64,000 bases of DNA from Candidatus Omnitrophota bacterium (GCA_037131245.1 JBAXRK010000009.1:12388-76387); one strand, 5' to 3'; shown: positions 9,301 to 25,013, counted from the stretch's first letter. Translations and numbers: made by a program. The notes: generated by a model not told the origin, from the sequence alone.

Positions 9301-9387
9301 TTTGAAGAAAATGCTTTTCCCGGCAGGGTCCGTTGGCTATAATCAAAGTTAAATTTGGTTGTTCCTTTTGTAATAAGTGAGGGGACT

Positions 9388-9609: not shown

Positions 9610-9613
9610 ACCA

Positions 9614-10000: not shown

Positions 10001-10586
10001 GTCCCCATTTGAGTTTGACGGCGAGAACAGGGAGCTTTATGACCTGTCGGTCCTCCTGGTGGCGGCAGTGCGCAAGGTGCTTAGCCAAAAGGGCGATATC
10101 CATCTTTCCCAAGAGCCGCGGATCTCCGAGAAAGAAACCATTCAGTTCGCCCACCGGATGCGCGTGGACGGCCTGGAGAAATTCAACGGCCGTACCCTGA
10201 TCGCGGCGCTCAATTTCTATATTGATAAAGAGCATATGGATCACGACAAAGCCCTTGGCGCCTTGATCGTGTATATCCCGGAGGATTATATCGCGCGTTT
10301 GATGTGGCTGCTGGAGTATGGCCGCATTGATGAGGACGATGAGGACGAGGTGCTTGACGCTTGCGGTACGGTGACCAATCTTATCGCGGGGTATTTTATC
10401 AAGGAGCTCAGCGGCCACGGTTATGTTCATCTGGAAATGGGGCATTTTACGACGTTTGTCAATTCGCCTCTTAATGGCATTGATTTTCATTCCCAGGAAA
10501 AGGTTAAACACGAGATGGAGATCTTCATTCGTGATGAAAAGCGCATGGTGCTGGAGCTCACGATGGGCCACGTGAAGAGGTACTAG
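9987..10586 (+). CDS. Hypothetical protein, possible CheC/CheX-like domain
   Basis: I prefer the ATG at 9987 (MSNSKSPFEF), which overlaps the upstream receiver gene by 14 nt. The C-half (GALIVYIPEDYIARLMWLL...DEVLDACGTVTNLIAGYFIKEL...EMEIFIRDEKRMVLELTM) resembles the CheX-family pattern. T replaces the catalytic E of the E-x-x-N motif. Confidence 0.45.
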   Translation: MSNSKSPFEFDGENRELYDLSVLLVAAVRKVLSQKGDIHLSQEPRISEKETIQFAHRMRVDGLEKFNGRTLIAALNFYIDKEHMDHDKALGALIVYIPEDYIARLMWLLEYGRIDEDDEDEVLDACGTVTNLIAGYFIKELSGHGYVHLEMGHFTTFVNSPLNGIDFHSQEKVKHEMEIFIRDEKRMVLELTMGHVKRY

Positions 10587-10587
10587 G

Positions 10588-10944
10588 ATGCGAAAAAAGA
10601 TCCTGATCGCCGATGATGACCCGACCTTGACCCGCCTGCTTGGCTCTTATCTGGGTGAGAACGGGTATGACACGGTGGTCGCTCATGACGGGGACGAGGC
10701 CTTGCGCAAGCTTGAGCAGGAGCTTCCCGACCTGATCATTCTCGACGTGGTGATGCCCAAGGTAAATGGGTACGCGTTCCTTTTTGCGATGCGGCAGATC
10801 GAAGGGGCCCGGACCACGCCGATCATTGTGTTGACCTGCAAACCGGAGCTGGCCGAGATCTTTTTGGCTGAGGGTGTGCAGGAGTATGTGATCAAGCCTT
10901 TTCCTCATCAGGAATTACTGCTAAAAGTCCGGAAGTATATTTGA
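10588..10944 (+). CDS. Stand-alone response-regulator receiver (CheY-like)
   Basis: The receiver residues are IADDD, LIILDVVMPKVNG, IIVLTCK and VIKPF. The gene starts 1 nt after the previous stop. Confidence 0.9.
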   Translation: MRKKILIADDDPTLTRLLGSYLGENGYDTVVAHDGDEALRKLEQELPDLIILDVVMPKVNGYAFLFAMRQIEGARTTPIIVLTCKPELAEIFLAEGVQEYVIKPFPHQELLLKVRKYI

Positions 10945-10973
10945 TACCGGGGTTAACAAAACGGAGCGTGCTT

Positions 10974-11606
10974 ATGATCATTTCCCGACAGATCCTTTCT
11001 CTTGCGTTGGTGGTGCTGGTGATCGCCGGTTTGAGCATTTATAAATTCGGCATTCAGAAAGCGTGGCATCCCGCCAAGATCAATATGTTCCAGCAGGGCC
11101 GGGTCAAGGGCGATCCAGCCGCGCCGGTCAAGATCGTGGAGTATACGGATTTTCAATGCCCGGCCTGCGCTGCCGCTAACACAGTGCTTGAGGACTTGTT
11201 CAAAAAGCATGAAGGCAAGATATCCCTGGAACATAAGCATTTCCCGTTGCCCCGGCATGCCCATTCCCTGCGGGCGTCGATCTTTGCCGAGTGTGCTGTT
11301 GAGCAAGGCAAGTTCTGGCCCATGCATGATGTGCTTTTTAAAAGCCAGAAGAGCTGGGAAGGGATGATCTCGGTGGATGCTTATTTTTCCGAGCTGGCGG
11401 TTTCGCTGGGCCTGGATGGGACACGCCTGGCCGCGTGCGTCAATAGTCCTGCTGCCGATGGCAAGGTAACCCGTGACAAGATCGCCGGCCAAACCCTGGA
11501 AGTCAACGCCACGCCAACATTCTTTATTAACGGCAAACGCGTGGTAGGCGGGAAATTCATGGCAGAGGAAGTGGAAAAGCTGCTGGCGGTGCCCGGAGGG
11601 AAGTGA
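10974..11606 (+). CDS. DsbA-family thiol:disulfide oxidoreductase, membrane-anchored
   Basis: The ATG at 10974 is preceded by a ggag RBS. An N-terminal TM/signal anchor is followed by a thioredoxin-fold CxxC (YTDFQCPACAAA). Confidence 0.85.
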   Translation: MIISRQILSLALVVLVIAGLSIYKFGIQKAWHPAKINMFQQGRVKGDPAAPVKIVEYTDFQCPACAAANTVLEDLFKKHEGKISLEHKHFPLPRHAHSLRASIFAECAVEQGKFWPMHDVLFKSQKSWEGMISVDAYFSELAVSLGLDGTRLAACVNSPAADGKVTRDKIAGQTLEVNATPTFFINGKRVVGGKFMAEEVEKLLAVPGGK

Positions 11607-11607
11607 C

Positions 11608-12051
11608 ATGTTCGTTGTGATCAGGCTGCTGCTCGGGGCCCTTTTTATTTTTTCCGGCGGAGAGAAGCTCCTGAAGCCCATGGAGGAATTTCTTTACGTG
11701 ATCGACGGGTATCAGGCGTTGCCTCAATGGGCGGAGCCGGCAGTCGCGCTGTTGTTCCCGTGGGTTGAGTTCTTTGCCGGGCTCTTTATCCTGTTGGGCT
11801 TCTGGCTGAGGCAGGCTTTGGCGGTTCTGCTGCTTTTGTCGGCCGCACTGGCCCTGATCGTCGGACAAGCCATCCTGCGTCATTTGCCGCTGGATAATTG
11901 CGGTTGTTTCGGCGAACTTATTCATCTTCCTTTGCACGGCGTGATCTTGATCGACCTGTCGGTCATCGCGTTGTCGGCACTATGCCTGGCTAACAGCACA
12001 AAGGCGTCGCGATACTCGCTCGATGCGTTCTATGCCCGGCCTAAAGCTTAA
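11608..12051 (+). CDS. MauE/DoxX-family redox-associated membrane protein
   Basis: It has four hydrophobic helices and the CGCFG motif (LPLDNCGCFGELI). It starts 1 nt after the dsbA stop. Confidence 0.7.
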   Translation: MFVVIRLLLGALFIFSGGEKLLKPMEEFLYVIDGYQALPQWAEPAVALLFPWVEFFAGLFILLGFWLRQALAVLLLLSAALALIVGQAILRHLPLDNCGCFGELIHLPLHGVILIDLSVIALSALCLANSTKASRYSLDAFYARPKA

Positions 12052-13516
12052 ACTTTTCCTGATCTTCCTGGGGTTGTGCGTGATGGGCAGGCCTTCGTTC
12101 GCTGATAATGATCTTAAAGAGGCTGGCCTGGCCGGCAGCTGGTATCCAGGGGCCTCAGGTGAGCTTTCCCGAATGGTCGATGGATATTTAAGCGCTGCTC
12201 CCGCGCCGGTGTCCGGCAAAACGGCGGGAGTGATCATTTCCCCTCATGCCGGGTATGTTTTTTCAGCGCCGGTTGCGGCGTACGGTTTTAAAGCGGCCAC
12301 TTCCCGGAACATTGCCACGGTCATTATTCTGGCGCCCAGTCATCATTTTTCTTTTGCCGGTATTTCGGTCTGGCCCCGGGGGGCTTTTGAAACGCCGCTC
12401 GGCCGGATCGAGGTTGACGCGGACCTGGCCGGCAAGCTTTTGGCCGCCGATAAGCGTTTTATTTTCCGGCGGGATGTATTTGACGGGGCGCGAGACCAGC
12501 CCGAGAATTCGGTGGAAACGCAATTACCGATGATCCAGCGGGTTTTTCCGAAAGCAAAGATCGTTCCTGTTATCGTGGGGTTTCCTCCGGATTTTGATGT
12601 TCTGCGCGCTTTGGCTGGCGCGCTGGCCGGTATCGTCGGCTCCCGGGAAGATGTTTTGGTCGATGTCAGCGTGGATCAGTCGCATTTTCATACCGAGGCG
12701 CAGGCGCATGAGATCGACGCGCGCGGCCTGAAAGCCATCGAGGCCATGGACGAACAGGCGTTGTGGCAGGGGCATCGTGACGGGTTAATGGAAGTGGATG
12801 GGTTCCATGTTGTAACGGCAGCCATGCTTTACGCGAAAGCACAGGGGTATAGCGCCGCGAAAGTGTTGAAGTACGCGACGTCGGCGGACGCCACCGGTGA
12901 TAAGGGTCGGGTCGTGGGGTATGCGTCGGTCGCCTTCTATAAAGATTCGGGAAGCGTGATGCCGGCGGGACTTAATGATGCCCAGCGGGCTCGTTTGCTG
13001 GGTGTGGCCCGTGCTACGCTGGAGTCTTTTGTCCGCACCGGTAAAGCGGCCGATGTTGCTGAAAATGATTCTCGCTTGAGCGCGGAGGAAGGCGCTTTTG
13101 TAACGTTGCATGCCCGCGGCCAGTTGCGTGGATGCATCGGGAACATTATTGGACAAGGCCCGCTGTATCTGACGGTGCGGGATATGGCCGTGGCCGCGGC
13201 ATCGCAAGACCCCCGTTTTTCGGCGGTCAGTGCCGGTGAGCTTAAGGATATTGCTATTGAGATCTCGGTCCTGTCGAAGCCGCGGGTCATTGCGAATACG
13301 GATGAGATAGTAATGGGGACGCATGGGGTTATTGTGTCGCGCGGTTTTTCCAACCGCGGGGTTTTCCTTCCGCAGGTGGCTACCGAGACCGGCTGGACCA
13401 AAGAGCGCTTCATGGCGGAGCTTTGTTCCCAGAAAGCCGGCCTTCCGCCAAATTGCTGGAAAGAGCCAGGGACAAGGATCGAAATATTCACCGCGGAAGT
13501 TTTCGGGGAGAAGTAA
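12023..13516 (+). CDS. Fusion of Memo-like (AmmeMemoRadiSam system protein B) and AMMECR1 (protein A) domains
   Basis: The N-half carries AGSWYPG...GVIISPHAGYVFSAPVAAYGF (Memo family). The C-half carries GAFVTLHARGQLRGCIGNI (AMMECR1 signature). The start is ambiguous. ATG 12023 or 12032 gives a Sec-type signal (LKLFLIFLGLCVMGRPSFA|DN), whereas ATG 12083 gives a cytoplasmic protein. Confidence 0.85.
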   Translation: MRSMPGLKLKLFLIFLGLCVMGRPSFADNDLKEAGLAGSWYPGASGELSRMVDGYLSAAPAPVSGKTAGVIISPHAGYVFSAPVAAYGFKAATSRNIATVIILAPSHHFSFAGISVWPRGAFETPLGRIEVDADLAGKLLAADKRFIFRRDVFDGARDQPENSVETQLPMIQRVFPKAKIVPVIVGFPPDFDVLRALAGALAGIVGSREDVLVDVSVDQSHFHTEAQAHEIDARGLKAIEAMDEQALWQGHRDGLMEVDGFHVVTAAMLYAKAQGYSAAKVLKYATSADATGDKGRVVGYASVAFYKDSGSVMPAGLNDAQRARLLGVARATLESFVRTGKAADVAENDSRLSAEEGAFVTLHARGQLRGCIGNIIGQGPLYLTVRDMAVAAASQDPRFSAVSAGELKDIAIEISVLSKPRVIANTDEIVMGTHGVIVSRGFSNRGVFLPQVATETGWTKERFMAELCSQKAGLPPNCWKEPGTRIEIFTAEVFGEK

Positions 13517-13534
13517 TAGAAAGAGGACATTGTT

Positions 13535-13768
13535 ATGGGAAAAAAGAATAATAGTAAACCGAAGAAAGAAGATGATGCCAAGAAGCCTTTTTTATCTGAT
13601 CGCCAGCGCAAGATCTTCGTTATCGTGATCCTGGCGATGTTCCTTCTGGTCCCGATCGTGGATAATTTCCGTTGCAAGGCCGAATGCCTCAAGAAGGTTA
13701 AGACGCCGTATCCCGAGATCGCCTGCCAGTATCAATGCCCCTGGCCCTGGGCCAGGATCGGCAAATGA
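13535..13768 (+). CDS. Small basic membrane protein with two CxxxC motifs
   Basis: An RBS agagga lies upstream. A Lys-rich N-terminus is followed by one TM (IFVIVILAMFLLVPIV) and the tail CKAEC...CQYQC. The stop overlaps the SEDS gene start (ATGA). Confidence 0.55.
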   Translation: MGKKNNSKPKKEDDAKKPFLSDRQRKIFVIVILAMFLLVPIVDNFRCKAECLKKVKTPYPEIACQYQCPWPWARIGK

Positions 13769-14871
13769 ATAACGCTGAAGGCCGCACGATATGGGTTTTC
13801 ACCGGCCTGATCATTGCGGTGGGCCTGGCCGCGCTTTATAGCGCGACCTACGAAAATGTGCGCGTGACCCGGCAGGTCTTCTACGATCAGCTGATCTGGT
13901 CGTTGATAGCGTTGGTTGTTATGTTCGTCCTTAGCCGCGTGAATTATCGTTTTTTTTACGATAGCGCCTATATCATTTATGGCTTGAGCGTGCTTCTTCT
14001 TCTGGCGGTTTTGTTCTCCGGCCGGTCGGCGCTGGGGGCAACGCGCTGGTTCAACCTGGGCTTCTTTTCTTTTCAACCTTCCGAGTTGTCAAAACTGGCG
14101 GTTGTGGTGATGCTGGCCCGTTATTTTAGTTCCAGCAATGAGCGTTTTTCGTTCAATGTCCGGGGGGCCATGAGCGCTGCCTGCCAGGACTTGCTGTTCC
14201 CGTTCATTCTTGTCCTGATCAGTTTCGTGTTGATCTTCAAGCAGCCTGACCTGGGGACGGCTTTACTGGTGATGGGGATCTTTATCATTATGGTTTATGC
14301 TTCGGGTGAGGAGATGAAGCCATTTGGTATTTTTTTAGGCGCTTGTACGGCTTTGATCCCGGTGGGTTGGATCTTTTTAATGAAGGACTATCAGCGGGAC
14401 CGGGTGCTGGTCTTTATGAATCCTAACGCCGATCCGTTGGGTGCCGGGTATACCATTATTCAATCGAGGATCGCGGTCGGTTCCGGGCAAATGTTCGGCA
14501 AGGGCTGGCTGGCCGGGACGCAGAACCAGTTGAATTTTCTTCCCGAACGGCACACGGATTTTATTTTTTCCGTTATCGGCGAAGAGTGGGGGTTCCTGGG
14601 GGCGATCTTCCTGATCGTTTGTTATTTCATGCTGATCTGGACCGGGCTGCAGATCGCGGAACGGGTGAAGGATCGTTTTGGGCATATGATGGCTGTCGGG
14701 ATCGTCAGCATCCTGGCTTTGCAGGTTGTTATTAACATCAGCATGACCATCGGTCTAAGCCCGGTGGTCGGGATCACACTGCCGCTGATCAGCTACGGCC
14801 GTACCTCGTTCATGATCTTTGCCGTGCTTATCGGGATCATGCTCAATTTAAGTTCGCGTCGTTCCGCTTGA
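13765..14871 (+). CDS. SEDS-family peptidoglycan glycosyltransferase (FtsW/RodA/SpoVE)
   Basis: I prefer the start at ATG 13765 (MNNAEGRTIWVF...). It is polytopic, with the family motifs FQPSELSKLAVV, NQLNFLPERHTDFIFSVIGEEWGF and ITLPLISYG. Confidence 0.9.
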   Translation: MNNAEGRTIWVFTGLIIAVGLAALYSATYENVRVTRQVFYDQLIWSLIALVVMFVLSRVNYRFFYDSAYIIYGLSVLLLLAVLFSGRSALGATRWFNLGFFSFQPSELSKLAVVVMLARYFSSSNERFSFNVRGAMSAACQDLLFPFILVLISFVLIFKQPDLGTALLVMGIFIIMVYASGEEMKPFGIFLGACTALIPVGWIFLMKDYQRDRVLVFMNPNADPLGAGYTIIQSRIAVGSGQMFGKGWLAGTQNQLNFLPERHTDFIFSVIGEEWGFLGAIFLIVCYFMLIWTGLQIAERVKDRFGHMMAVGIVSILALQVVINISMTIGLSPVVGITLPLISYGRTSFMIFAVLIGIMLNLSSRRSA

Positions 14872-14897: not shown

Positions 14898-14926
14898 TTG
14901 ACATATAATACTAATTTAAGTAAAGT
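14898..14926 (+). promoter_or_regulatory. Candidate sigma70 promoter for the pilus motor operon
   Basis: TTGACA (14898-14903), a 17-nt spacer, then TAAAGT (14921-14926), in an AT-rich gap. A TATAAT directly abuts the -35, so other registers are possible. Confidence 0.35.
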
Positions 14927-14967: not shown

Positions 14968-15417
14968 ATGCGCTACGAACGGGCTTCTAATAAGCATCTG
15001 GGCGAGTTACTGGTGGAACGCGGGCTGATCGCTCGCGACCATCTTGATAAGGCCCTGGAGTATCAGCAGACCCATCCGGACGTTCTTTTCGGCGAGGCTC
15101 TCATCAAGCTGGGCTTCGCGTCCGAGGAGGATATCGCCCAGGCGCTGACCTGCCAGTACGGGTTTCCCTACCTTCCTTTATCCAATTATGAGATCGACGT
15201 TGAAGTCGCCAGGTCCGTCCCGGGGAATGTGTGCGAGCAGTTTTGCCTGATCCCTATCGACAAGATCGGTAAAAGTTTGACCCTGGCGATGTCGAACCCC
15301 TTGAACATGAAAGCGGTCGACAGTATCGAGCTACTGACCGGCTGCACGGTGCAGGCTTTTGTCAGCACGACTACGGATATTCGCAACGCTATTAAAAGAT
15401 ACTATAGCGGGGATTAA
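14968..15417 (+). CDS. Stand-alone T2SSE_N / MshEN-type domain protein
   Basis: This 149-aa protein is entirely the N-terminal domain type found on GspE/PilB/MshE ATPases: HLGELLVERGLIARDHLDKALEYQ, LFGEALIKLGFASEEDIAQALTCQ, then CLIPIDKIGKSLTLAMSNPLN. It has no ATPase core. Confidence 0.8.
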   Translation: MRYERASNKHLGELLVERGLIARDHLDKALEYQQTHPDVLFGEALIKLGFASEEDIAQALTCQYGFPYLPLSNYEIDVEVARSVPGNVCEQFCLIPIDKIGKSLTLAMSNPLNMKAVDSIELLTGCTVQAFVSTTTDIRNAIKRYYSGD

Positions 15418-17141
15418 TGCCGACATTTAAAGACCGGATCAAGGCCATTCTGCTGCGTGACGGGATCCTGAGTTCGCAGGACCTTGGCCGTGCGGTCGAA
15501 GAGCAGGAAAAGACCGGAGGGGAGCTCAGCAAGATCCTGGCGCGGATGGGCCTGATCGATGAGGAGCAGCTGGCTTTTCTTTTAAGCGAAGGCCTGCATC
15601 TTCCTGTGATCAATATTGCACGCCTCAAGATCGACCCGTCCGTCGTGAATGTTTTGCCCGTCGATATTCTTAAGAAATACCGCATCCTTCCTGTCTCACG
15701 CATCGGCGACAATTTATCCCTGGCCATGGCCGATCCCCTTAACATCTTTGCGATCGATAATGTCAAAGCCCTGACGGGGCTCACGATCACGCCGATCATC
15801 GGGCGCCCCAAGGATATCGCGGACGCGATCGAGCAGTATACGGCGCCAAAATCCGATGAGTCTTTTAATCAGATCCTGCGCGACATCAAGGATGCCGAGG
15901 AGGTGGAGCTGGTCAATGAGGGGCCGGACAGGCTTGATGCCAAAGAGGTCGAGAATATCACTCAGGAGGCGCCGATCATCCGGCTGGCGAATACCATCGT
16001 CCGCCAGGCGGTCGCCGCCAAGGCCTCCGACGTTTTTATTGAACCGCTGGAGAAAAGCCTGCGCATCAGGTACCGCATCGATGGCGTGCTGCGCGAGATC
16101 GACCGCATGTCCAAAGCGCTGCATTTCCCGGTCGTGTCCCGGATCAAGGTGGTCTCGAACCTGGATATTTCCGAGCACCGCATGCCGCAGGACGGGCGGT
16201 TTAAGTCGTCGCTCGAGGGTGGCAAGGAAGTGGATTTTCGTGTTTCCATTTTGCCGACGGTCTATGGGGAAAAGGTGGTGCTGCGGGTCCTCGACAAGAA
16301 CCAGGGCCGTGTGGATATTGAGAAACTGGGGATGGAGCCGGGCCCGCTACTTCGCCTGAAGGAGGCCTGTAGCCGCCCTCACGGGATGATCCTGATCTGC
16401 GGTCCGACGGGCAGCGGGAAAACGACCACGCTTTATTCTATTTTGCGGCATATCGATTCTCCGGGAAAAAATATCGTGACCGTTGAGGATCCGGTGGAAT
16501 ATCAGATGAAGGGCCTAAATCAGGTGAATATCCGTTATGAGGTCGGCCTGACATTCAGCGCGACACTGCGTTCGATCCTGCGCCAGGATCCGGATGTCAT
16601 CATGATCGGCGAGATCCGCGATTCGGAAACACTCGATATCGGGATCAAGGCGGCATTGACCGGGCATTTGGTGGTCAGTTCCCTGCATACGACGACGGCG
16701 TCCGGTTCGGTGGTCCGCATGGTCAATATGGGCATTGAGCCTTTCCTGATTTGTTCCGCGGTCAATTGCCTGGTGGCGCAACGCTTGTTGCGCCGTATTT
16801 GCCCGAGCTGCAAGGAAGCCGTGACCATATCGGAAACCCTTTATAACAAGCTGAATATCGGCCGGATCATTCCAGGTAAAGACCTTCTTTTTTATCGTGG
16901 TAAAGGGTGTGTGCAATGCTTGAAGTCCGGCTATTCGGGCCGAGTGGGTATTCACGAGGTGTTGCCGCTATCACCGGCGATCAAGAAGTTAATTCTGGCG
17001 CGGGCCGGCGAGATCCAGATCAAATCGGCGGGCCGCGAAGAGGGCATGCGCACGATGCGCGAGGACGCGCTGGCCAAGGCGGCACAGGGATTGACATCAC
17101 TTGAGGAGGTCGTGCGCGTGACCGCGCAGGACGAGAAATGA
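15417..17141 (+). CDS. pilB: Type IV pilus / T2SS assembly ATPase (PilB/GspE family), copy 1
   Basis: It has a Walker A (GPTGSGKTTTLYS), Asp/His boxes (VMIGEIRDSET, LVVSSLHT), a tetracysteine CPSC...CVQC and an N-terminal T2SSE_N domain. It joins the upstream gene by a TAATG overlap. Confidence 0.93.
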   Translation: MPTFKDRIKAILLRDGILSSQDLGRAVEEQEKTGGELSKILARMGLIDEEQLAFLLSEGLHLPVINIARLKIDPSVVNVLPVDILKKYRILPVSRIGDNLSLAMADPLNIFAIDNVKALTGLTITPIIGRPKDIADAIEQYTAPKSDESFNQILRDIKDAEEVELVNEGPDRLDAKEVENITQEAPIIRLANTIVRQAVAAKASDVFIEPLEKSLRIRYRIDGVLREIDRMSKALHFPVVSRIKVVSNLDISEHRMPQDGRFKSSLEGGKEVDFRVSILPTVYGEKVVLRVLDKNQGRVDIEKLGMEPGPLLRLKEACSRPHGMILICGPTGSGKTTTLYSILRHIDSPGKNIVTVEDPVEYQMKGLNQVNIRYEVGLTFSATLRSILRQDPDVIMIGEIRDSETLDIGIKAALTGHLVVSSLHTTTASGSVVRMVNMGIEPFLICSAVNCLVAQRLLRRICPSCKEAVTISETLYNKLNIGRIIPGKDLLFYRGKGCVQCLKSGYSGRVGIHEVLPLSPAIKKLILARAGEIQIKSAGREEGMRTMREDALAKAAQGLTSLEEVVRVTAQDEK

Positions 17142-17144
17142 TCC

Positions 17145-18845
17145 ATGCCTAATGTCCGTGAACGCATCATTAACGCTCTTGTGCAACTGCCCGGGATCGA
17201 CCGGGGGGCGGTGGACGCCGCGCTTGACTACCAGCGGGAGAAGAATATCTCTTTTGCCGAGGCGGTGGTTGCCAAGGGGCTTATTCCTGAAAAAGACTTT
17301 GTTTTGCTGCTTGTCCGGGAGCTCAAGATCCCTTCAGTTGACTTGCGGCGTTTCAAACTTGACCCGCGCCTGAAGGATGAAGTTCCGGAGCGGCTCGCAC
17401 GGCAGTACAACCTCATCCCGATCGCGACCCTCGGGACGAGCCTGACCGTGGCGCTGGGTGATCCGCTGAATGTTTTTGCCCTTGATGATCTTCGGGATAT
17501 GACCGGCAAGAAGATCGATGTCGTGATGGCGACCCCTTCCCAGATAAAAGATGCGGTCGACCGTTTTTATGGCGGGGCGGACCAGGGGTCGGTTGCCGAG
17601 ATCAGCAAGAACATCGATGTCGGCGATTTTGAGATCATTGCTGATACCAAGGAAGAAGACGGCGCGGACGTCGATGGCAGTGAACAGGCACCGGTCATCC
17701 GCATGGTTAACCTGGTTTTGAAGGAGGCCTTGCGTCAGCGGGCGTCCGATGTCCATATGGAACCCACGGAAGGCCATATGCGCGTCCGTTACCGCGTGGA
17801 CGGGGTCCTGGTCGATGTCCTTGAGATCCCCCGGGAGAGCCAGGGCGCGGTGCTGGTGCGTATCAAGATCATGTCACGGATTGATATCACGGTCACGCAG
17901 GTGCCGCAGGACGGGCGTTTTAAACTGAGGATGTCAGGCAAGGAAGTGGATTTCCGGGTTTCGATCCTGCCGACCAGCCACGGGGCCAAGGTTGTTATGC
18001 GGCTGTTGGATAAGGCTAATCTGTCGGTGGGCCTGGGGCAGCTGGGTTTGTCGGACCATTCGCTCGCGCTGGTCGAGGAAGGTATTCTTAAGCCTTTTGG
18101 GATGATCCTGGTCACCGGACCGACCGGAAGCGGGAAGTCGACGACGCTGTATTCGATCATCAACAAACTTAATAGTGTGGACAAGAATATTATCACGGTT
18201 GAAGACCCGGTTGAATATCTGGTGGACGGCTTGACCCAGATCGAGGTGCGCGCGGATATAGGTCTTACGTTCGCCGCCGCCTTGCGTTCAATCCTTCGTC
18301 AGAGCCCGGATATCGTGATGGTGGGCGAGATCCGCGATAATGAAACGGCGGATATCGCCATTAAAGCGTCATTGACGGGGCAGCTGGTTTTCTCCACGCT
18401 GCACACGAATGACGCTGCCGGCGCGTTGACCCGTTTGGTTGATATGGATGTGGAGCCTTTTTTGGTGGCCTCGAGCCTGGTCCTGGTGTGTGCCCAGCGC
18501 CTGGCGCGTAAGATCTGCCCGCATTGCAAGTATGAGGTCGAGGTACCGATCGAAGCGCTCAAACGGTTTGAAGGAGCCCTCGATCCCAAGACCCGCTTTT
18601 ACGCCGGGCGCGGTTGCGATCACTGCCGTCATACGGGCTATCGCGGCCGCTTCGCGGTCACCGAGATCCTGGTGATGGACGATCCGATCCGGGAGATGCT
18701 GCTGCAGGGCAAGTCGTCAGACGATATCAAGGATTATGCCCGCCGGCAGAAAACGCTCCGGGTCTTGTGGGATGACGCGGTCGAGCGCCTGGCGCAGGGA
18801 CAGACGACGATCGAGGAAGTGTTGCGTATTGTTTCAGATGAGTGA
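17145..18845 (+). CDS. pilB: Type IV pilus / T2SS assembly ATPase (PilB/GspE family), copy 2
   Basis: It has GPTGSGKSTTLYS, VMVGEIRDNET, LVFSTLHT and CPHC...CDHC. It is a paralogue of copy 1, and by eye roughly half or more of the core residues are identical. Confidence 0.93.
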   Translation: MPNVRERIINALVQLPGIDRGAVDAALDYQREKNISFAEAVVAKGLIPEKDFVLLLVRELKIPSVDLRRFKLDPRLKDEVPERLARQYNLIPIATLGTSLTVALGDPLNVFALDDLRDMTGKKIDVVMATPSQIKDAVDRFYGGADQGSVAEISKNIDVGDFEIIADTKEEDGADVDGSEQAPVIRMVNLVLKEALRQRASDVHMEPTEGHMRVRYRVDGVLVDVLEIPRESQGAVLVRIKIMSRIDITVTQVPQDGRFKLRMSGKEVDFRVSILPTSHGAKVVMRLLDKANLSVGLGQLGLSDHSLALVEEGILKPFGMILVTGPTGSGKSTTLYSIINKLNSVDKNIITVEDPVEYLVDGLTQIEVRADIGLTFAAALRSILRQSPDIVMVGEIRDNETADIAIKASLTGQLVFSTLHTNDAAGALTRLVDMDVEPFLVASSLVLVCAQRLARKICPHCKYEVEVPIEALKRFEGALDPKTRFYAGRGCDHCRHTGYRGRFAVTEILVMDDPIREMLLQGKSSDDIKDYARRQKTLRVLWDDAVERLAQGQTTIEEVLRIVSDE

Positions 18846-18921
18846 AAACGGATTTTTAGCTTCCGCCGCGGGGGATCGCGGTTATAATAAAGACGGGTGA
18901 GCGGGAAGTGGGGGGGCTGTT

Positions 18922-19377
18922 ATGACAAAATGCTGTCTGGACCGTAAATTGATCGGGGAGATCCTTGTCGAGCGTGGTTTGATCTCGCAGGTTGATCTTG
19001 ATAGCGCGCTCAGCCATCAGAAATCCACGCCTGGCAGTTTCTTGGGTGAAATTCTCATTCGCCTGGGGGTGTTGACCGAGATCGACATTGTGACCGCCCT
19101 GGTGCTTCAGTGCAATCTGCCCTATATCGCGGTCAGCAAGCATCTGATCGAGCCTGAAGTGGCGCGCCTGATCCCGGCCGTCATGGCCCGCCGGGAAAGA
19201 GTGATCCCGCTTGACCGTATCGGGAACGTTCTAAGCATTGTTGTGCCCGGCCCGTTGCGGGAATCCCTGCGCGAGGAACTTGAACGGGTCTCCGGATGCA
19301 AGATCGCGATGTTCATCACCACGCCGACCGAGATCGACGGCGCTTTGGACCGGCTTTATCCGGTGAAAAATCCTTAA
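18922..19377 (+). CDS. Stand-alone T2SSE_N / MshEN-type domain protein, second copy
   Basis: This 151-aa protein carries LIGEILVERGLISQVDLDSALSHQ, FLGEILIRLGVLTEIDIVTALVLQ and VIPLDRIGNVLSIVVPGPL. An RBS ggggggg lies upstream. Confidence 0.8.
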   Translation: MTKCCLDRKLIGEILVERGLISQVDLDSALSHQKSTPGSFLGEILIRLGVLTEIDIVTALVLQCNLPYIAVSKHLIEPEVARLIPAVMARRERVIPLDRIGNVLSIVVPGPLRESLREELERVSGCKIAMFITTPTEIDGALDRLYPVKNP

Positions 19378-19388
19378 GGATAATTTTT

Positions 19389-20600
19389 ATGGCGACATTC
19401 CGTTATTCCGCGAAAGACTTCGACGCCCATACGTTCACCGGCAAGATCCAGGCGGCCGATCAGGCAGCCGTTATCGACGAGCTGCGCAAGCGCAAGCTGA
19501 TCATCGTCAGCATTGAGGAAGAGAGGGCATCATCCTTAATGCCGGCTTCTTCCGGCAAAACCGCGCCCATCAAAAGTGAAGATGTTATTCTTTTCTCCCG
19601 TCAGATGGCGACAATGGTCGACGCGGGTATCCCGATCCTGCAGACGGTCGACGCGTTGCAGGAACAGATGGTGAATCCTTCTTTTAAGAGGGTCCTCATT
19701 ACGGTCCGTGACGATATCCGTCTCGGCAGCAGCCTTTCCGCCGCTTTTGCCAAGCATTCCAGGGTTTTCGACGGCCTGTTTATTAATATGATCAGGGTCG
19801 GCGAGACCGGCGGTGTTTTGACGACGGTCCTTGACCGCCTTTCATCGTATATGGAGAAGTCCGAGCGCTTGCGCCGCAAGGTCAGCGGGGCGCTGGTTTA
19901 TCCCATGGTCATTGTGTCGATGGCGATGATCGTTACCATCGTTCTGCTGGTCAAGGTCGTGCCGACCTTCTCCTCGATCTATGCTTCGTTCGGCCGCAAG
20001 CTGCCGGCGATGACGCAGATCCTTCTTGATGTGAGCAATGGCTTGAAGGATAATTTTTTGGCGATCATCCTGATCGGCGGGGCCATGGTGGGCGCGGTGA
20101 TGGCTTATCAGCGCACCGAAAAAGGCGCGTATCAGATCGACGGGCTTAAATTGAAGTTGCCGGTTTTTGGTGACCTGCTTAAGAAAGTATCCGTGAGCCG
20201 CTTTTGCCGGACCCTCGCGGTGCTTATTCAGAGCGGGGTCCCTATTCTGGAAGGGCTTGATATTGTGCGCAAGACCATCGGTAACCGGGTCCTTGAAAAG
20301 GTCATTGCCGAGGTCATCGACAGCGTGCGGGAGGGCGAAAGCATTTCGGAACCGCTTACCCGGAGCAAAGTTTTTCCGACCATGGTCACCAAGATGATCT
20401 CGGTTGGTGAACAGTCGGGGCAGCTGGACAAGATGCTGGTTAAAGTTGCCGATTTCTTTGATGACCAGGTTGACGCGGCGGTGGAAACGCTAACCAGCCT
20501 TATTGAGCCGTTCATTATCGGTTTTCTGGGGATCGTGATCGGGTTCATCGTGATCGCGCTTTTCATGCCGATCATCAGCATTACGACAATGATCAACTAA
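19389..20600 (+). CDS. pilC: Type IV pilus platform protein PilC (GspF family)
   Basis: I prefer the ATG at 19389 (MATFRYSAKD...); the ORF track extension from 19296 overlaps the upstream gene. It has two GspF repeats and 3 TM segments (FSRQMATMVDAGIPILQ, FCRTLAVLIQSGVPILE). Confidence 0.92.
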   Translation: MATFRYSAKDFDAHTFTGKIQAADQAAVIDELRKRKLIIVSIEEERASSLMPASSGKTAPIKSEDVILFSRQMATMVDAGIPILQTVDALQEQMVNPSFKRVLITVRDDIRLGSSLSAAFAKHSRVFDGLFINMIRVGETGGVLTTVLDRLSSYMEKSERLRRKVSGALVYPMVIVSMAMIVTIVLLVKVVPTFSSIYASFGRKLPAMTQILLDVSNGLKDNFLAIILIGGAMVGAVMAYQRTEKGAYQIDGLKLKLPVFGDLLKKVSVSRFCRTLAVLIQSGVPILEGLDIVRKTIGNRVLEKVIAEVIDSVREGESISEPLTRSKVFPTMVTKMISVGEQSGQLDKMLVKVADFFDDQVDAAVETLTSLIEPFIIGFLGIVIGFIVIALFMPIISITTMIN

Positions 20601-20612
20601 ACGGAGATCTTG

Positions 20613-21659
20613 ATGGTGCGTTCATGGCAGTGGTTGATGGTGGCGGTCCTTCTGTTGGCCGGGGTAGCGCGGCCCCTGTTTGCCGATTCTCTGGCAGAAG
20701 TGTCCAGTGCCCAGGATAAGCTGGACTATACGCTTAATACACTTAAAGAAAGCGTGGCCCGGCTTAGCGACGAAAATAAAAAGCTTTCGGCCGGCAATGA
20801 GCAACTTAAGTTGAAATTGGCGCCGATGAATGATCGGCTCAATCAGGAACAGTCCAGGGAAGCTAAGCTGGTTGCCCAGCGTGACGCGCTGGATGCCGAT
20901 TATCGTAAGAGCCTGGCGGCGCGTGCCGCGTTGCAGGGACTGTTCGACCAAGGAGCTGCCGATCTAGCGGGCTTCAACGCTTCTCGCTTGGCGGCGGAAG
21001 ATGCGCTGAAGGCCCGGGATGTGGAAAATGCCGCTCTGGCTGCCAGGGCTGAGGCGTTGACACGGGAGTTGGAGGATATCCGTACCGGTCTGGTACCCGG
21101 TGAGGATCATACGGCTGAATTGGAAGCGCTGCGCGTGGCCCAGCAGTCGGCCCAGAAAGATCTTGAGATGTTCACCGCTCAGCTTGATCGTTTGCGTGCC
21201 GAGTGGAAGGAATTGGCGGTTTTTATTAACGCGGGCCCTGGTCAGGTGGATGTGCTTAAACAGGAACAGTCTACGCTTCAGGCGGATATTGTGCGCCGCA
21301 CGCAGGAGGTTGAGGATTTACGCCAGAAGGCGGCATCAGCCGTTAAAGAAGCGGATGATGTTTCTGCCAGGTTCTCGGCCGAGGCCCTGGCGTTGACGGA
21401 ACGGGATGTTCAGTTGCTGGAAGCAAAAGTACTCGCGGCCGAGCAGGAAGCGGCAGAGGCTGAAAAAACGGCACGCAGTGGTAAGGTGTCGCCGGCTCAG
21501 GATGCCAAGCTAAAAAAGGATGAGACCCGCTTCAAGGACTTGATGCAGCGCAACAAGGACCTGGTCATGGGCTTGAAGAATTTGCAGCGTTCCATGGTTA
21601 GTATGGACAAAAAGAAGTCGGCCCTGGAAAAAGAGCTGGAGCAGAACCGCTCCTATTGA
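20613..21659 (+). CDS. Secreted coiled-coil protein of unknown function inside the pilus operon
   Basis: GGAG lies 6 nt upstream of ATG 20613. A signal peptide (WLMVAVLLLAGVARPLFA|DS) is followed by about 320 aa of A/E/L/K/R-rich heptad-like sequence. Confidence 0.75.
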   Translation: MVRSWQWLMVAVLLLAGVARPLFADSLAEVSSAQDKLDYTLNTLKESVARLSDENKKLSAGNEQLKLKLAPMNDRLNQEQSREAKLVAQRDALDADYRKSLAARAALQGLFDQGAADLAGFNASRLAAEDALKARDVENAALAARAEALTRELEDIRTGLVPGEDHTAELEALRVAQQSAQKDLEMFTAQLDRLRAEWKELAVFINAGPGQVDVLKQEQSTLQADIVRRTQEVEDLRQKAASAVKEADDVSARFSAEALALTERDVQLLEAKVLAAEQEAAEAEKTARSGKVSPAQDAKLKKDETRFKDLMQRNKDLVMGLKNLQRSMVSMDKKKSALEKELEQNRSY

Positions 21660-21692: not shown

Positions 21693-21855
21693 TTAAGCAG
21701 GATGAAACGTAGGAACGGGGAAGGAAAGGAGGCGGTAAGCGTCTTAACTTAACCGGGTGGTGTCGAAGGCGAGAACAGGTGAAACGTCATTATACTTACC
21801 TTTCGTAGTTCTCTCCCGATGGGCATCACCGCACAAACAACATCATGGAGGGTTT

Positions 21856-22248
21856 ATGTCTAACAAAAAAGGTTTTACGCTCGTTGAGATCATGATCGTG
21901 GTGGCTATTATCGCGTTGCTGGCTGCTATCGCTATTCCGAACCTGTTGAGAGCCAAGATCGCGGCGAACGATGCCCTGGCGAAGGGTACCCTCCGCACGC
22001 TGTCGACCGCGTCTGAGACGTTTGCGACCGCGAATAACGGTGTTTATCCCGGAGATCAGGCTTCGTTGACGGCGCCCACTTCTGGTCCGGCGTATGTGAA
22101 CAAGAATTACTGCGATACTGTTAATGCCGGGTTCTCGGTTACTTGCGCTTTCGGCACTGGATCGTACACGTTCACGGCTACACCCACGGCGGTCGGAACA
22201 TCGGGTACGACCACGTTCTTAATGAAAACGGGCGGTATCCTGGAATAA
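21856..22248 (+). CDS. Type IV pilin (PilA-like major pilin)
   Basis: I prefer the ATG at 21856, which has GGAGG 5 nt upstream. It has a short leader and prepilin cleavage/methylation motif (MSNKKG|FTLVEIMIVVAIIALLAAIAIPN) and a C-terminal Cys pair (NYCDTVNAGFSVTC). Confidence 0.93.
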   Translation: MSNKKGFTLVEIMIVVAIIALLAAIAIPNLLRAKIAANDALAKGTLRTLSTASETFATANNGVYPGDQASLTAPTSGPAYVNKNYCDTVNAGFSVTCAFGTGSYTFTATPTAVGTSGTTTFLMKTGGILE

Positions 22249-22269: not shown

Positions 22270-22305
22270 CAAAAAGAAGAGGCCTTGATGGCCTCTTCTT
22301 CTTTT
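22270..22305. terminator. Bidirectional rho-independent terminator between convergent genes
   Basis: An 11-bp perfect stem (aagaagaggcc / ggcctcttctt) is flanked by an A-run upstream and a T-run downstream. Confidence 0.8.
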
Positions 22306-22313: not shown

Positions 22314-23846
22314 TTATTGGACGATGCCTTGCAGCCGGTACTTGGGGTGGAGCGGATCAGTGTATTGCGGGTATAGCACATCGACGAAGTAGTAGTGCTT
22401 TCCCGGGGGGTCATTCTTTTTGATGAGCCAGTTAACCCAGTAATTCCCGGGCTCGTTGGGGCGAATGTAGAATGAAAGGTCTTTTTCCTGCCGATGCTGG
22501 GCGATAAAGCCTTCCAGAAGTTTGATAAGTAAGCGGGAAGGGCGCTGATCTTCGGCGATCGTGGTACAAATTCGGGAAATGTTCCAGGATCCCTGGACCG
22601 CCAGGCAAAGTAGTGTGATGGAGAGGGCGCCGGCAAGCAGGCGGTGTTTATTGAAAAGCGGCCGTGTGACCAAAAAAAGAAGGGGTGTGAACAGCACCCA
22701 GAAATTATAGAAATAATACAGACTGCGATGAAGTCCGGAGCCATCCTCACGAACATTGGCACGTCCGGCCACGATGATAAGAACATAACCGGCCAGCATC
22801 GCTGTCAGGAGCAGGGCTTTAGCGGACATTGTTTCTTTCCTGCACTTGAGCATGCTTATGCCGGCAGAGGCTGCCGTGGCTATCAGGGCTGCCGCACCGA
22901 TCCAGCGCGCGGGATCCGCGTTGGCAAGCGGCCAATCCCAGCGGAAGACGTCCGGCCTGACCATTAGCCGGCTGATAGGGATAATGTCCTGTGGTTGAAG
23001 GAAGAAGCCGCCTGCGATGAACCATTTGGCGACTGAGCCGAAATTCATTAATGTCTTGAGTCCCGGCAGGGTGCCGGCGATCCTTGAAGTTTCCGCGTCA
23101 AAATGACAGGCTGTTATCAGCCAGTGCCCGATATCCCAGCCGGCATAGATCAGGATCGGTACTAAAAGGATCAGGGACTTTTGTTCTCGTCCGGAGCCTT
23201 TAAGGGACAGGAAGGCGTAAAGAAAGAGGCAGGGAATATACCAGATACCGGCTTCGTAGATCAGCACGGCGGCCAGAAGCCAGCCGGCGCAGGTGTTCAG
23301 AGAGCGCTGGTCATGACCGGCGGACAGAAGATGCGTTTCTAGTTGGTCCAAGGCCATCAGGATGAATCCGGCAAAGAAAACGTAGGGAGTGATCCCGTGC
23401 CAGATAACCGCTTCGGTATTCGCGAACAGGAAAGCGAAAAAGATAGTAAAAAGCCAGGCGGCGGCCTGGGATCCCGCATGGTCGCCGGCCCAGCGCCGGA
23501 GTAAACGCCATAGTGCCCAGACAGAAAAAAGATGCGCGCCGAGGGCGGTCAGTTGCCACCAGAAAAAAGCGTAACCGAAGATCATTTTTTGCAGGTAGAG
23601 CATCAGGAACAGGAGCGGGCGGAAAAGGAGCACGTCACCCGGAGAAAAGGTTCGGGTGCGGTTATAGAACATGGCGTCGATGAGCGATTGGGAGGAATTG
23701 CTTTTTCCGGCATATTCAGCCAGAAAGCTGACCTGGTCGGCACGGGCGATATGATAGAGCGCCGGGCAGTACGCGAGGGCCACCAGGATCAGCAGGATCA
23801 GAAAGCCCGCGGCAGGCGCCCAGGGAGGAAGTTGATTTCTTGGCAT
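22314..23846 (-). CDS. Polytopic inner-membrane protein, possibly GT-C-type glycosyltransferase
   Basis: This is the only minus-strand gene. It has about 12-13 hydrophobic helices followed by a soluble C-terminal tail of about 85 aa. This architecture resembles ArnT/PMT-like or oligosaccharyltransferase-like enzymes, but I could not verify a signature motif. Confidence 0.7.
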   Translation of the reverse strand: MPRNQLPPWAPAAGFLILLILVALAYCPALYHIARADQVSFLAEYAGKSNSSQSLIDAMFYNRTRTFSPGDVLLFRPLLFLMLYLQKMIFGYAFFWWQLTALGAHLFSVWALWRLLRRWAGDHAGSQAAAWLFTIFFAFLFANTEAVIWHGITPYVFFAGFILMALDQLETHLLSAGHDQRSLNTCAGWLLAAVLIYEAGIWYIPCLFLYAFLSLKGSGREQKSLILLVPILIYAGWDIGHWLITACHFDAETSRIAGTLPGLKTLMNFGSVAKWFIAGGFFLQPQDIIPISRLMVRPDVFRWDWPLANADPARWIGAAALIATAASAGISMLKCRKETMSAKALLLTAMLAGYVLIIVAGRANVREDGSGLHRSLYYFYNFWVLFTPLLFLVTRPLFNKHRLLAGALSITLLCLAVQGSWNISRICTTIAEDQRPSRLLIKLLEGFIAQHRQEKDLSFYIRPNEPGNYWVNWLIKKNDPPGKHYYFVDVLYPQYTDPLHPKYRLQGIVQ

Positions 23847-23918: not shown

Positions 23919-25013
23919 ATGGCCTCTTTTGTGGATGGATACATAAAACTGATCAAACGCTTTTTCCCCCTGAACCGCCAGAGCAGTTCCATTGGACTCG
24001 ATGTAGGCCTGGCGGCGGTCAGGTCAGTCGAGATCACCAGTAAGAACGGGGTTTTTGAGCTGGTGCGCTGGGGTATTGAGCCCTTGGCCGCTAATGACGA
24101 TAAAGCGGCGGCTGTGGCCCTTGGTAAGACGGCGACGGCCCTCGGCCCTCAAGCCGGGTCGCGTCCGGTAGTTGCCTCCGTCGGGGGGAAAGGGACCCTG
24201 GTTCGTTATGTGGATATGCCCAGGATGTCAACCTCGGAACTGCGGCGGGCTTTTGAGATAGAATCGGACAAATATTTCCCTTTTCCTAAAGACACTGTCT
24301 ATACCGATTGCCACATCCTTGATACGACCGACAATAATCGTAAAATGGCGGTGTTGGTCTCCGCTGTAAAGAAAGATCTGGTCGACGGTAGGATGAAGCT
24401 GCTTAAGGACGCCGGGATGGACCCTGCGACGGTCACGCTCGCTTCCGTGGCCATGGCCAATGCTTTTGCCGTGTTCCCTCCGGAAGGTGTTGCGCCGGTG
24501 GACGGGAAGTCCCGTGAGTTCAAGGCTTCCGCCGTCCTGGATATTGGCGAGACGTGTACGAACTTGATGATCATTTTCGCGGGTTTGCCGCGGTTCAACC
24601 GGGATGTTTTTATCGGCACTCAGGAGATTTACAAGCGGGTGTCAAATTTGCTAGGCGTTCCTCCTCAGGAAGTGCCGGCGTTGTTACAGCCGGGGATGAC
24701 GTTGACTGAGCTGGCGCAGAAAGGCGTGGACGCGGTGATGGCGAACCTGATCGCCGAGATCCGCCTTTCTTTTGAATATTTTGTGACGGAAAAGAATCTG
24801 GCTGTTACGCGGATCTTTCTGGCTGGTGAAGGGGCTCAGGTCCCCGGTGTTGAGAAAGCGTTTAAGGACGGGATGGACATTCCGGTGAGTGTTTGGAACC
24901 CGCTGGATAAAATGCCCCGGTCGGCCACAGCGGCTTCCGAAGGCTTGAAGGCCGCGGGGCCACGGCTGGTGACGGCGCTGGGTTTGGCGCTAAATGAATA
25001 TGATCAAAGTTAA
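23919..25013 (+). CDS. pilM: Type IV pilus assembly protein PilM (actin-like ATPase fold)
   Basis: It carries IGLDVGLAAVRSVEI and ...VLDIGETCTNLMI. Its length and its position ahead of pilNOPQ fit PilM. Confidence 0.88.
   Translation: MASFVDGYIKLIKRFFPLNRQSSSIGLDVGLAAVRSVEITSKNGVFELVRWGIEPLAANDDKAAAVALGKTATALGPQAGSRPVVASVGGKGTLVRYVDMPRMSTSELRRAFEIESDKYFPFPKDTVYTDCHILDTTDNNRKMAVLVSAVKKDLVDGRMKLLKDAGMDPATVTLASVAMANAFAVFPPEGVAPVDGKSREFKASAVLDIGETCTNLMIIFAGLPRFNRDVFIGTQEIYKRVSNLLGVPPQEVPALLQPGMTLTELAQKGVDAVMANLIAEIRLSFEYFVTEKNLAVTRIFLAGEGAQVPGVEKAFKDGMDIPVSVWNPLDKMPRSATAASEGLKAAGPRLVTALGLALNEYDQS

Follow-up and report, generated by a model that had tools for sequence, protein, structure and literature searches.

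Predicted c-di-GMP receptor subunits encoded as free MshEN domains beside tandem PilB-type ATPases in an Omnitrophota type IVa pilus cluster

MshEN bundles bind cyclic diguanylate (c-di-GMP). The published binding motif, RLGxx(L/V/I)(L/V/I)xxG(L/V/I)(L/V/I)xxxxLxxxLxxQ, occurs twice in the domain with a 5-residue spacer (PMC5013675), and motors of the (MshEN)n-ATPase type are found in Thermus, Clostridia and Nitrospirota (PMC5013675, supplement). In GspE, PilB and PilF the GSPII/N1 domains make contact with GspL/PilM, and PilMN stimulation of the PilF ATPase depends on GSPII-C (PMC6325625). Here we describe a locus in which MshEN domains are encoded both inside and outside the motors. It lies in a 64-kb window (64,000 nt, the whole stretch of DNA that was analysed) of a metagenome-assembled genome (MAG) of Candidatus Omnitrophota, and what is said of the locus refers to this window. 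Two small genes, which we call S1 and S2, each encode an MshEN/GSPII domain and nothing else, and two PilB/GspE-type ATPases, PilB1 and PilB2, lie between them. We give about an even chance to the reading that S1 and S2 serve as c-di-GMP receptor subunits, encoded apart from the motors and acting in trans on the pilus machinery, a split form of the (MshEN)n-ATPases.

Signal reading apart from the motor has a precedent. In the Xanthomonas citri PilB-PilZ-FimX study, the PilB N-domain reportedly does not bind c-di-GMP, and separate docking proteins are said to read the signal in trans. As for the host lineage, type IVa pilus clusters are near-universal in Omnitrophota and have been proposed to serve host attachment; motor genes and MshEN go unmentioned there (PMC10066038).

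Free and fused MshEN domains

The four genes and the motifs of the free domains are arranged as follows (aa, amino acids).

14968..15417, + strand: S1, stand-alone MshEN/GSPII protein of 149 aa (Pfam, NF053729, AlphaFold2 model)
14995-15066 and 15085-15156, + strand: S1 motif 1 (aa 10-33) and motif 2 (aa 40-63), by pattern match
S1 aa 64-148, + strand: T2SSE_N1-type alpha/beta subdomain (Pfam MshEN match)
15417..17141, + strand: PilB1, PilB/GspE-type ATPase with fused MshEN, 574 aa (Pfam MshEN and T2SSE)
17145..18845, + strand: PilB2, second PilB/GspE-type ATPase with fused MshEN, 566 aa (Pfam MshEN and T2SSE)
18922..19377, + strand: S2, second stand-alone MshEN/GSPII protein, 151 aa (Pfam, NF053729, AlphaFold2 model)
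18949-19020 and 19039-19110, + strand: S2 motif 1 (aa 10-33) and motif 2 (aa 40-63), by pattern match

Pfam finds MshEN alone in both small proteins, at 68.3 bits in S1 (5.9e-19, residues 64-148) and 63.9 bits in S2 (1.3e-17, residues 65-147), against a cutoff of 23.1 bits for PF05157. Because that model spans the C-terminal alpha/beta half only, the motif region was scored separately with NCBIfam NF053729 ("c-di-GMP_motif", 53 positions, cutoff 38 bits), on which S1 scores 52.4, S2 56.2 and PilB1 a borderline 38.0, while PilB2 has no match. Counted at E<=1e-9, the same model recognises 80/80 S1 and 39/40 S2 orthologues. As a means of separating sensor from fused domains it had to be abandoned: it splits off PilB2 (0/63) but not PilB1 (70/72), which is discriminated only residue by residue.

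The fold agrees with the profiles. Single-chain AlphaFold2 (AF2) models of S1 and S2 (predicted local distance difference test 85.7 and 90.2) show a bundle of four helices and, after it, a three-stranded sheet flanked by helices, the beta-alpha subdomain, and Foldseek against the PDB returns c-di-GMP-bound Vibrio cholerae MshE (5HTL) as the top match for both, with template-modelling (TM) scores of 0.80-0.88 (0.80/0.85 for S1, 0.80-0.88 for S2) and a root-mean-square deviation of 2.1-2.3 A. Structures of c-di-GMP-bound PilF GSPII-B take ranks two to eight for S2; for S1 they appear from the seventh rank onward, preceded by the N-domain of X. citri PilB and by PilF GSPII-A. Each small protein amounts to one complete MshEN/GSPII domain with nothing else appended. 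Identity is 40% between the two and 28-33% with the PilB N-domains, and lengths stay constant at 140-168 aa across more than 100 clusters in each family; judged by this constancy, S1 and S2 are conserved protein families and not gene fragments. The idea of S1 as an ancestral-like form of the domain was dropped, the Geobacter PilB N-domain being 38.7% identical to that of PilB1 and 36.2% to S1.

What sets the free domains apart from the fused ones is the ligand motif. A relaxed form of the 24-residue pattern, [RKPN]hGxxhhxx[GAS]hhxxxxhxxxhxx[QNKRYWST], is required twice (PMC5013675). S1 and S2 match it everywhere but at position 1 of both motifs, where S1 has His and Leu and S2 has Leu and Phe, and they are therefore not members in the strict sense; the N-domains of PilB1 and PilB2 fit it nowhere. 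The spacer between motifs is 6 aa in the window proteins, as against 5 aa in MshE and most S1 orthologues. Across 81 aligned sequences of S1 and 40 of S2, the residues that contact the ligand at positions 3 and 24 are nearly fixed: G12 in 99%, G42 in 100%, Q33 in 93% and Q63 in 100% of S1, and both Gly3 and both Gln24 in all S2. Together with the hydrophobic triads they are 90-100% conserved, and the basic N-terminal patch is retained as well (K9 in 99% of S1). Position 1 is itself patterned by family. At the start of motif 1 in S1, His (60%) or Gln (31%) follows an invariant Lys, and motif 2 begins with Leu (98%); in S2 the first motif begins with Leu and the second with Tyr or Phe. The PilB1 family has replaced Gly3 by Lys or Gln in motif 1 and by Ser in motif 2 (85%), and the second Gln24 by Gly; judged by these key residues only, PilB1 would have lost c-di-GMP binding. 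The PilB2 N-domain contains no recognisable c-di-GMP motif and none of the Gly3/Gln24 residues. The most invariant stretch of S1, QYGFPYLPL...CxQFCLIPIDKIGKSLTLAM, sits outside the ligand motif (invariant surfaces QYGFPYLPL / IPIDKIGKSLTLAM).

How much the first position matters can be judged from PilF. GSPII-B has K167 and L196 at position 1 and binds c-di-GMP with a dissociation constant (KD) of 6 nM; K167L improves this to 2 nM, and L196R, which introduces an Arg, weakens binding about four-fold, to 23 nM (PMC11731258). The consensus has since been widened to (R/K/L)LG, so that Leu is accepted (PMC11731258). Since GSPII-B binds at nanomolar concentration with Lys and Leu, a first motif residue other than Arg is no defect.

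Most of what a first-pass annotation of this DNA had read from it stands: the four open reading frames (ORFs) with their coordinates and lengths, the TAATG overlap of S1 and pilB1, the 24-residue strings (which in S1 as in S2 fall at aa 10-33 and 40-63), and the Walker A and CxxC...CxxC motifs of both PilBs. It had taken the small proteins to be purely MshEN-type and proposed a Pfam scan, which agrees on this with NF053729 and the AF2 fold; and it had called the fused N-domains more degenerate, as is borne out by the family-wide loss of Gly3 and the second Gln, by the motif-free PilB2 and by the same pattern in six more distant loci. Its statement that the leading Arg is replaced by His or Leu is correct for S1 and mistaken for S2, which has Leu and Phe, and the weakness it saw in the missing Arg disappears in the light of PilF GSPII-B, where Lys/Leu gives 6 nM, K167L 2 nM, and Arg makes binding weaker.

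Gene order in related and distant loci

A scan with one genome per species yielded 80 related loci (L001-L080), labelled mostly Omnitrophota; the others bear the label Planctomycetales or Elusimicrobia and have the same gene order. Many module-bearing MAG records carry the name "uncultured Planctomycetales bacterium" and one carries "Elusimicrobia"; these are probably taxonomic mislabels. The order RodA-S1-PilB1-PilB2-PilC is present in every one of the 80 loci long enough to show it, L060 excepted, and RodA lies upstream of S1 in 69. The RodA-S1 gap is variable (median 151 nt, up to kilobases). Between S1 and PilB1 the median gap over 71 loci is 3 nt, and the commonest junction is a 1-nt overlap of the TAATG type (26/71), the same as in the window, where the stop codon of S1 and the start codon of PilB1 have one base in common (GATTAATGCC). 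The window has 3 nt between PilB1 and PilB2, 76 nt between PilB2 and S2, and 11 nt between the S2 stop and the probable pilC ATG. The pilB1 and pilB2 genes share a reading frame, with only TGA and one codon (TCC) in between. Across the related loci the PilB2-S2 gap has a median of 83 nt and the S2-PilC gap one of 8.5 nt, with a 1-nt overlap as its commonest value. Of the 58 loci that reach from pilB2 to pilC, over which it was counted, 35 have S2; in the other 23, just 28-210 nt separate pilB2 from pilC. S1 travels with pilB1, and S2 with pilC.

These figures do not fit the layout first proposed, in which two stand-alone domains bracket the motors symmetrically, one adaptor for each. S2 is missing in 23/58 loci, is coupled to pilC (8.5 nt) and not to pilB2 (83 nt), and in the window stands 76 nt from pilB2 but 11 nt from pilC; in other lineages, described below, one S accompanies two PilBs or just one.

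Mean pairwise identity over 31 loci is 69% for S1, much as in the ATPase catalytic cores (70-71%), with 64% for RodA, 64% for PilC, 52-59% for the PilB N-domains and 49% for S2. By this measure S1 is under strong purifying selection, and S2 under weaker. In a mirror-tree analysis, S1 correlates best with the PilB1 N-domain (partial correlation 0.53), and the PilB2 N-domain with PilC (0.65).

The exceptional locus, L060 (CAIOPG010000007.1, an Omnitrophica MAG, 8775-14023), contains RodA, S1, S2, the coiled-coil gene that follows pilC in the window, pilin and RNase G, and its S1 and S2 genes overlap each other. It looks like the outcome of three separate losses, or of relocation of the machinery in the genome, and the S proteins may there work away from adjacent motors.

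A wider, profile-free survey of 1.84 billion representatives found 18,762 MshEN-containing proteins. Among the best 150 matches 57 are 230 aa or shorter, not all of them stand-alone (that of L086 is cut by a contig end), and the library representatives that score best for S1 carry 3 to 7 MshEN repeats. Stand-alone genes (S) occur in these more distant settings:

L081 and L082: REC, S, PilB, PilB, PilC
L083: RodA, S, PilB, PilB, REC-HD-GYP, PilC, pilin
L087 (Omnitrophota), 697-3276: RodA, PilT, S, PilB, with PilT directly upstream of S
L089, 3361-4394: PilZ, S, the PilZ gene immediately preceding the stand-alone MshEN
L090: S, a single PilB, PilC, PilS, PilR (pilS/pilR-like)
L091: S, PilB, PilB, PilC, histidine kinase

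Among these distant loci L087 is assigned to Omnitrophota, and spread of the module beyond the phylum is unproven. Each of the six distant architectures has a free protein in which one motif or more is intact, with Gly3 and Gln24, and in five of the six both are; none of the adjacent PilB N-domains fits the motif pattern, and those inspected have the position-3 Gly replaced. Two neighbours connect the free proteins with c-di-GMP by association. One is the PilZ gene before S in L089. The other is the REC-HD-GYP gene of L083 (9821-10861, 346 aa; HD at 216, HHE at 269, GYP at 277), which occupies the S2 slot between pilB2 and pilC and whose motifs predict a bona fide HD...HHE...GYP c-di-GMP phosphodiesterase inside the motor module; the rodA gene of that locus closes an mreBCD-pbp2-rodA run. 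We regard the recurring complementarity of free and fused domains, taken with the HD-GYP and PilZ neighbours, as the strongest comparative argument for sensing in trans.

Sensing in trans and its alternatives

Overall, retention of the motif in S1 and S2 and loss of the Gly and Gln residues from the PilB copies is the pattern that sensing in trans predicts. The first-pass annotation had suggested that sensing was split off into trans-acting proteins; this much of it agrees with the genuine MshEN-only proteins and with a motif core that is kept in them and lost in the fused copies, and it is the one-per-motor layout that has to be given up. The analysis shows which domain and fold the proteins have, where the motif is kept and where it is lost, the conserved order and coupling of the genes, and purifying selection; that the proteins bind the ligand, on which partner they act and in which direction is what we infer. 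In outline, the MshEN that looks competent for ligand would be the free one, of about 150 aa, and the copy fused to each ATPase would have given up its ligand-contacting glycines. S1 would be made in fixed proportion to PilB1 through translational coupling; c-di-GMP would be bound by its four-helix bundle; and S1, by way of its T2SSE_N1-type subdomain, by packing on the PilB N-domain ring, or both, would alter how the ATPases engage the single PilM/PilC platform. S2 would be an optional second receptor or input, co-expressed with PilC.

At the same time, several observations weigh against receptor subunits acting in trans. PilF GSPII-A does not bind c-di-GMP, and restoring its consensus residues did not regain binding (PMC12002112); a domain so near the consensus and yet non-binding makes motif conservation alone an unreliable predictor. 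His/Gln in motif 1 of S1 and Phe/Tyr in motif 2 of S2 fall outside (R/K/L)LG, and where MshE has Asp108, a secondary contact, S1 has Asn and S2 has Gly. The NF053729 matches of 70/72 PilB1 N-domains mean that PilB1 may keep some binding at the profile level, in which case S1 would be an extra sensor and not a replacement. The mirror-tree signal is weak and confounded by shared phylogeny. S1 and S2 are intact in L060 although pilB1, pilB2, pilC and pilMNOPQ are missing at that locus. Finally, no GGDEF, EAL or HD-GYP gene lies within the 64-kb window.

A different role for the same proteins, which we think unlikely, is that of ligand-independent docking or decoy modules that occupy PilM/PilC sites or cap the PilB hexamer and so gate two ATPases without c-di-GMP. 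One platform faces two motors in this locus, and both S proteins have a complete T2SSE_N1-type subdomain, the GspL/PilM-binding part in solved type II secretion system complexes; 2BH1 and 4PHT are among their partial structural matches, and the most invariant S1 stretch is the one outside the ligand motif. Ellison and colleagues are said to have described, in 2021, a motor-inhibitor protein, CpiA, in the two-motor system of Acinetobacter baylyi. A pure docking role would not, however, demand that S1 and S2 retain their ligand Gly/Gln residues and triads at 90-100%, since the fused domains also dock and have lost them, and the HD-GYP and PilZ genes next to the module in related loci speak for c-di-GMP.

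It is also conceivable, though distinctly improbable, that S1 and S2 are c-di-GMP receptors whose main output lies elsewhere, in RodA-dependent cell-wall elongation, in pilin or coiled-coil handling or in other regulation, and that their linkage to the pilus is inherited gene order. MshEN is fused elsewhere to glycosyltransferases, REC, CheA, CheX and HD-GYP (PMC5013675, supplement), and the adjacency of RodA and S1 is conserved as much as that of S1 and PilB1. The two junctions nonetheless differ, the first being large and variable and the second overlapping or nearly so, and in the distant loci the upstream neighbour is exchanged (REC, PilT, PilZ, a DNA-repair gene) while the downstream PilB stays. 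L060, which keeps S1, S2, the coiled-coil gene and pilin with no pilB1, pilB2, pilC or pilMNOPQ at the locus, would suit an output of this kind, but this is one genome, and the motors may lie in another part of it.

We hold it quite unlikely that S1 is an obligatory, non-regulatory structural subunit, derived by fission of an ancestral (MshEN)2-ATPase gene and completing the N-terminal ring of PilB1. This proposal shares its evolutionary origin with the trans-acting receptor and differs from it on regulation only, and it draws on the prevalence of the TAATG-type overlap (26/71), on the existence of (MshEN)2 to (MshEN)4 fused to T2SSE (PMC5013675, supplement) and on the 3 to 7 MshEN repeats in the best library matches of S1. 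Fused S1-PilB1 forms are, however, absent from all 71 loci, and S2, its coupling to pilC and the retained ligand residues are left unexplained.

A bolder extension, to which we attach only a slim chance, would make the detached MshEN proteins c-di-GMP-loaded selector subunits that choose which ATPase docks on the single PilM/PilC, with PilB2 serving for priming or even for PilT-independent retraction. It builds on the PilB2 N-domain, which co-varies most with PilC and has lost all ligand residues. If true, it would amount to a motor-switching mechanism for ultra-small, host-attached Omnitrophota.

That S1 and S2 are decaying 5' pilB fragments or gene-calling artefacts, as the JGI label "type IV pilus assembly protein PilB" on many members and the genuine contig-end fragment in L086 might suggest, is refuted by the conservation data, namely the constant 140-168 aa in more than 100 clusters per family, identities of 69% (S1) and 49% (S2) over dozens of species, invariant motifs, clean starts and stops inside long contigs, and confident fold models.

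The motors, their cluster and described systems

Both ATPases are well-formed. PilB1 and PilB2 score 447 and 438 bits on Pfam T2SSE, are 40% identical, and combine N1, N2 and C-terminal parts with an intact Walker A (GPTGSGKT in PilB1, GPTGSGKS in PilB2), Asp box, Walker B, His box and tetracysteine motif (CPSC...CVQC and CPHC...CDHC). Among orthologues, Walker A and the four cysteines are present in 70/70 PilB1 and 62/62 PilB2, the Asp box in 69/70 and 57/62, the His box in 69/70 and 62/62, and a strict Walker B pattern in 56/70 and 62/62. On the PilB equivalog TIGR02538 (cutoff 675.65) PilB1 reaches 627.9 and PilB2 586.5, both below it, and PilB2 scores marginally higher, 590.3, on the GspE model, whose cutoff is 630.25; the pair belong to the PilB/GspE superfamily and match no curated equivalog. 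Scores on the PilT/PilU model TIGR01420 (cutoff 319.1) are far below cutoff at 176.9 and 185.5, and the N1 domain and four cysteines are present; those on TfpB NF053534 (cutoff 850) are 434.9 and 439.5. By these sequence marks both ATPases are extension-type, and neither carries the mark of a retraction motor.

Tblastn found no T2SSE-type ATPase beyond PilB1 and PilB2 in the window, PilT likewise was not found there, and no PilD/Peptidase_A24 is present among its scanned ORFs, so that the two methods agree with what had first been said of PilT and PilD for these 64 kb. A pilT gene near the module is absent from L001-L080, and only L087 and L088 carry one. Since pilT adjoins the S gene in another Omnitrophota MAG (L087), its absence, and that of pilD, from 64 kb says little.

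The remaining genes of the pilus cluster are these.

13735..14871, + strand: RodA/FtsW-family gene (Pfam FTSW_RODA_SPOVE 3e-101), the conserved upstream neighbour of S1
14898..14926, + strand: weak promoter-like site TTGACA-17-TAAAGT upstream of S1, 10/12 consensus matches
19389..20600, + strand: PilC platform protein (Pfam T2SSF 1.7e-64; NCBIfam PilC and GspF models, 380-395 bits)
20610..21659, + strand: coiled-coil protein, 349 aa, downstream of pilC (weak coiled-coil-type matches only)
21757..22248, + strand: type IV pilin (Pfam N_methyl at aa 34-60; NCBIfam IV_pilin_GFxxxE and PilA/GspG N-terminal matches)
22274..22300, + strand: terminator-like hairpin after the pilin gene, 11-bp stem and T tract (consensus match only)
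23919-25013, 24994-25590 and 25587-26168, + strand: pilM, pilN and pilO (Pfam PilM_2, PilN, PilO)
26170-26559, + strand: pilP-like gene, 129 aa (weak T2SSC match only)
26560-28140, + strand: pilQ secretin (Pfam Secretin, Secretin_N, STN)

With pilB, pilC, pilM, pilN, pilO, pilQ and a class III signal pilin all present, the region is a type IVa pilus cluster. The pilC ORF opens at 19296, and its start is most likely the ATG at 19389; the true start of the pilin is likely M34 at nt 21856, giving the leader MSNKKG followed by FTLVEIM. The hairpin at 22274..22300 is probably the end of a transcription unit that runs from S1 to pilin. The region has 7 promoter-like sites against a shuffled expectation of 4.6 +/- 2.3, no excess over chance, so the limits of the operon rest on gene spacing and on this one strong terminator-like hairpin. 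Orthologues of the coiled-coil gene are confined to the loci nearest the window, L001-L014 and L060, and the L060 homologue has a signal- or lipoprotein-like N-terminus. A 510-aa polytopic membrane ORF (22314-23846, - strand), the only minus-strand gene of its stretch, sits between pilin and pilM; it has no Pfam or NCBIfam match and no homologue among the 80 related loci, and we would speculate that it is a lineage-specific insertion, possibly a pilin-modifying enzyme.

Further upstream, a REC, CheX-like, REC trio (9614-10944) precedes genes for DsbA-like, MauE/DoxX, Memo-AMMECR1 and RodA proteins, and the run from this trio through RodA keeps its synteny with the pilus module in those Omnitrophota loci that are nearest the window. 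Four + strand ORFs have no Pfam match (56-3157, 1033 aa; 3297-3968, 223 aa; 5411-6064, 217 aa; 7969-9300, 443 aa), and the window ends in the nusG-rplKAJL-rpoBC-rpsLG-fusA-tuf-S10 operon region. Almost all genes of 1-64000 are on the + strand, GC skew is positive throughout and cumulative skew rises monotonically, which suggests a single replichore with strong co-orientation.

What might be learned from such a locus goes beyond its annotation, although the assignments do correct the labels "hypothetical protein" (as carried at NCBI by the proteins identical to S1, WCO69_05085, and to S2, WCO69_05100, from a Candidatus Omnitrophota MAG) and "PilB" for two families widespread within Omnitrophota. 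Control of extension motors by GSPII/MshEN is an open question, one reason being that structures of full-length PilB resolve this flexible domain poorly (review PMC11656802). A free MshEN beside two intact motors that lack the contact residues would offer a natural "domain-in-trans" system, in which sensing, docking and catalysis become biochemically separable, and with His, Gln, Leu, Phe and Tyr at position 1 it supplies natural variants to set beside the binding consensus, which was extended recently. A part in host attachment has been proposed for the type IVa pili of ultra-small, possibly parasitic Omnitrophota (PMC10066038), so that pilus regulation bears on lifestyle. The practical gain is modest: the locus varies known parts to a modest degree, and it yields a hypothesis that can be tested, not a new principle.

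Those parts are all on record: MshEN and its motif, an ATPase-less MshEN in PA3740, multi-MshEN motors, trans control of PilB by c-di-GMP, paired extension ATPases and Omnitrophota pilus clusters. For the module itself, a free MshEN coupled to tandem PilBs with decayed motifs, we found no description in the open-access full-text literature. Pseudomonas aeruginosa PA3740 is, like S1 and S2, an MshEN protein without an ATPase domain (PMC5013675, supplement); compared by description, it differs in a highly divergent N1, which is canonical in S1 and S2, and the sources mention no pilB linkage or coupling. The X. citri PilB N-domain (7LKM/7LKO) is among the structural matches of S1 and S2, but the trans sensor there is the degenerate EAL protein FimX, acting via a PilZ adaptor, and not a detached copy of MshEN. 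A. baylyi runs two extension ATPases, PilB and TfpB, on one type IV pilus machine, like PilB1 and PilB2 (review PMC11656802); the window pair differ in failing the TfpB model and in being adjacent and anciently duplicated, and no stand-alone MshEN is described in the A. baylyi system.

Closest in the domain itself is V. cholerae MshE (5HTL, PMC5013675), which shares with S1 and S2 the two-subdomain fold and a tandem 24-residue motif with Leu/Gly at positions 2-3, the turn Gly, the triads and the terminal Gln; its MshEN is, however, the N-terminus of the ATPase where S1 and S2 are free, and both its motifs begin with Arg. Thermus thermophilus PilF, a (MshEN/GSPII)3-ATPase (GSPII-B 8PDK, PMC11731258), likewise has several MshEN copies per motor of which only some are ligand-competent, and with Leu at position 1 of GSPII-B it resembles S2 and motif 2 of S1, which are of the same hydrophobic-first type. 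In PilF, however, all copies reside in one polypeptide, whereas the Omnitrophota window distributes them over separate, competent-looking genes and two ATPases.

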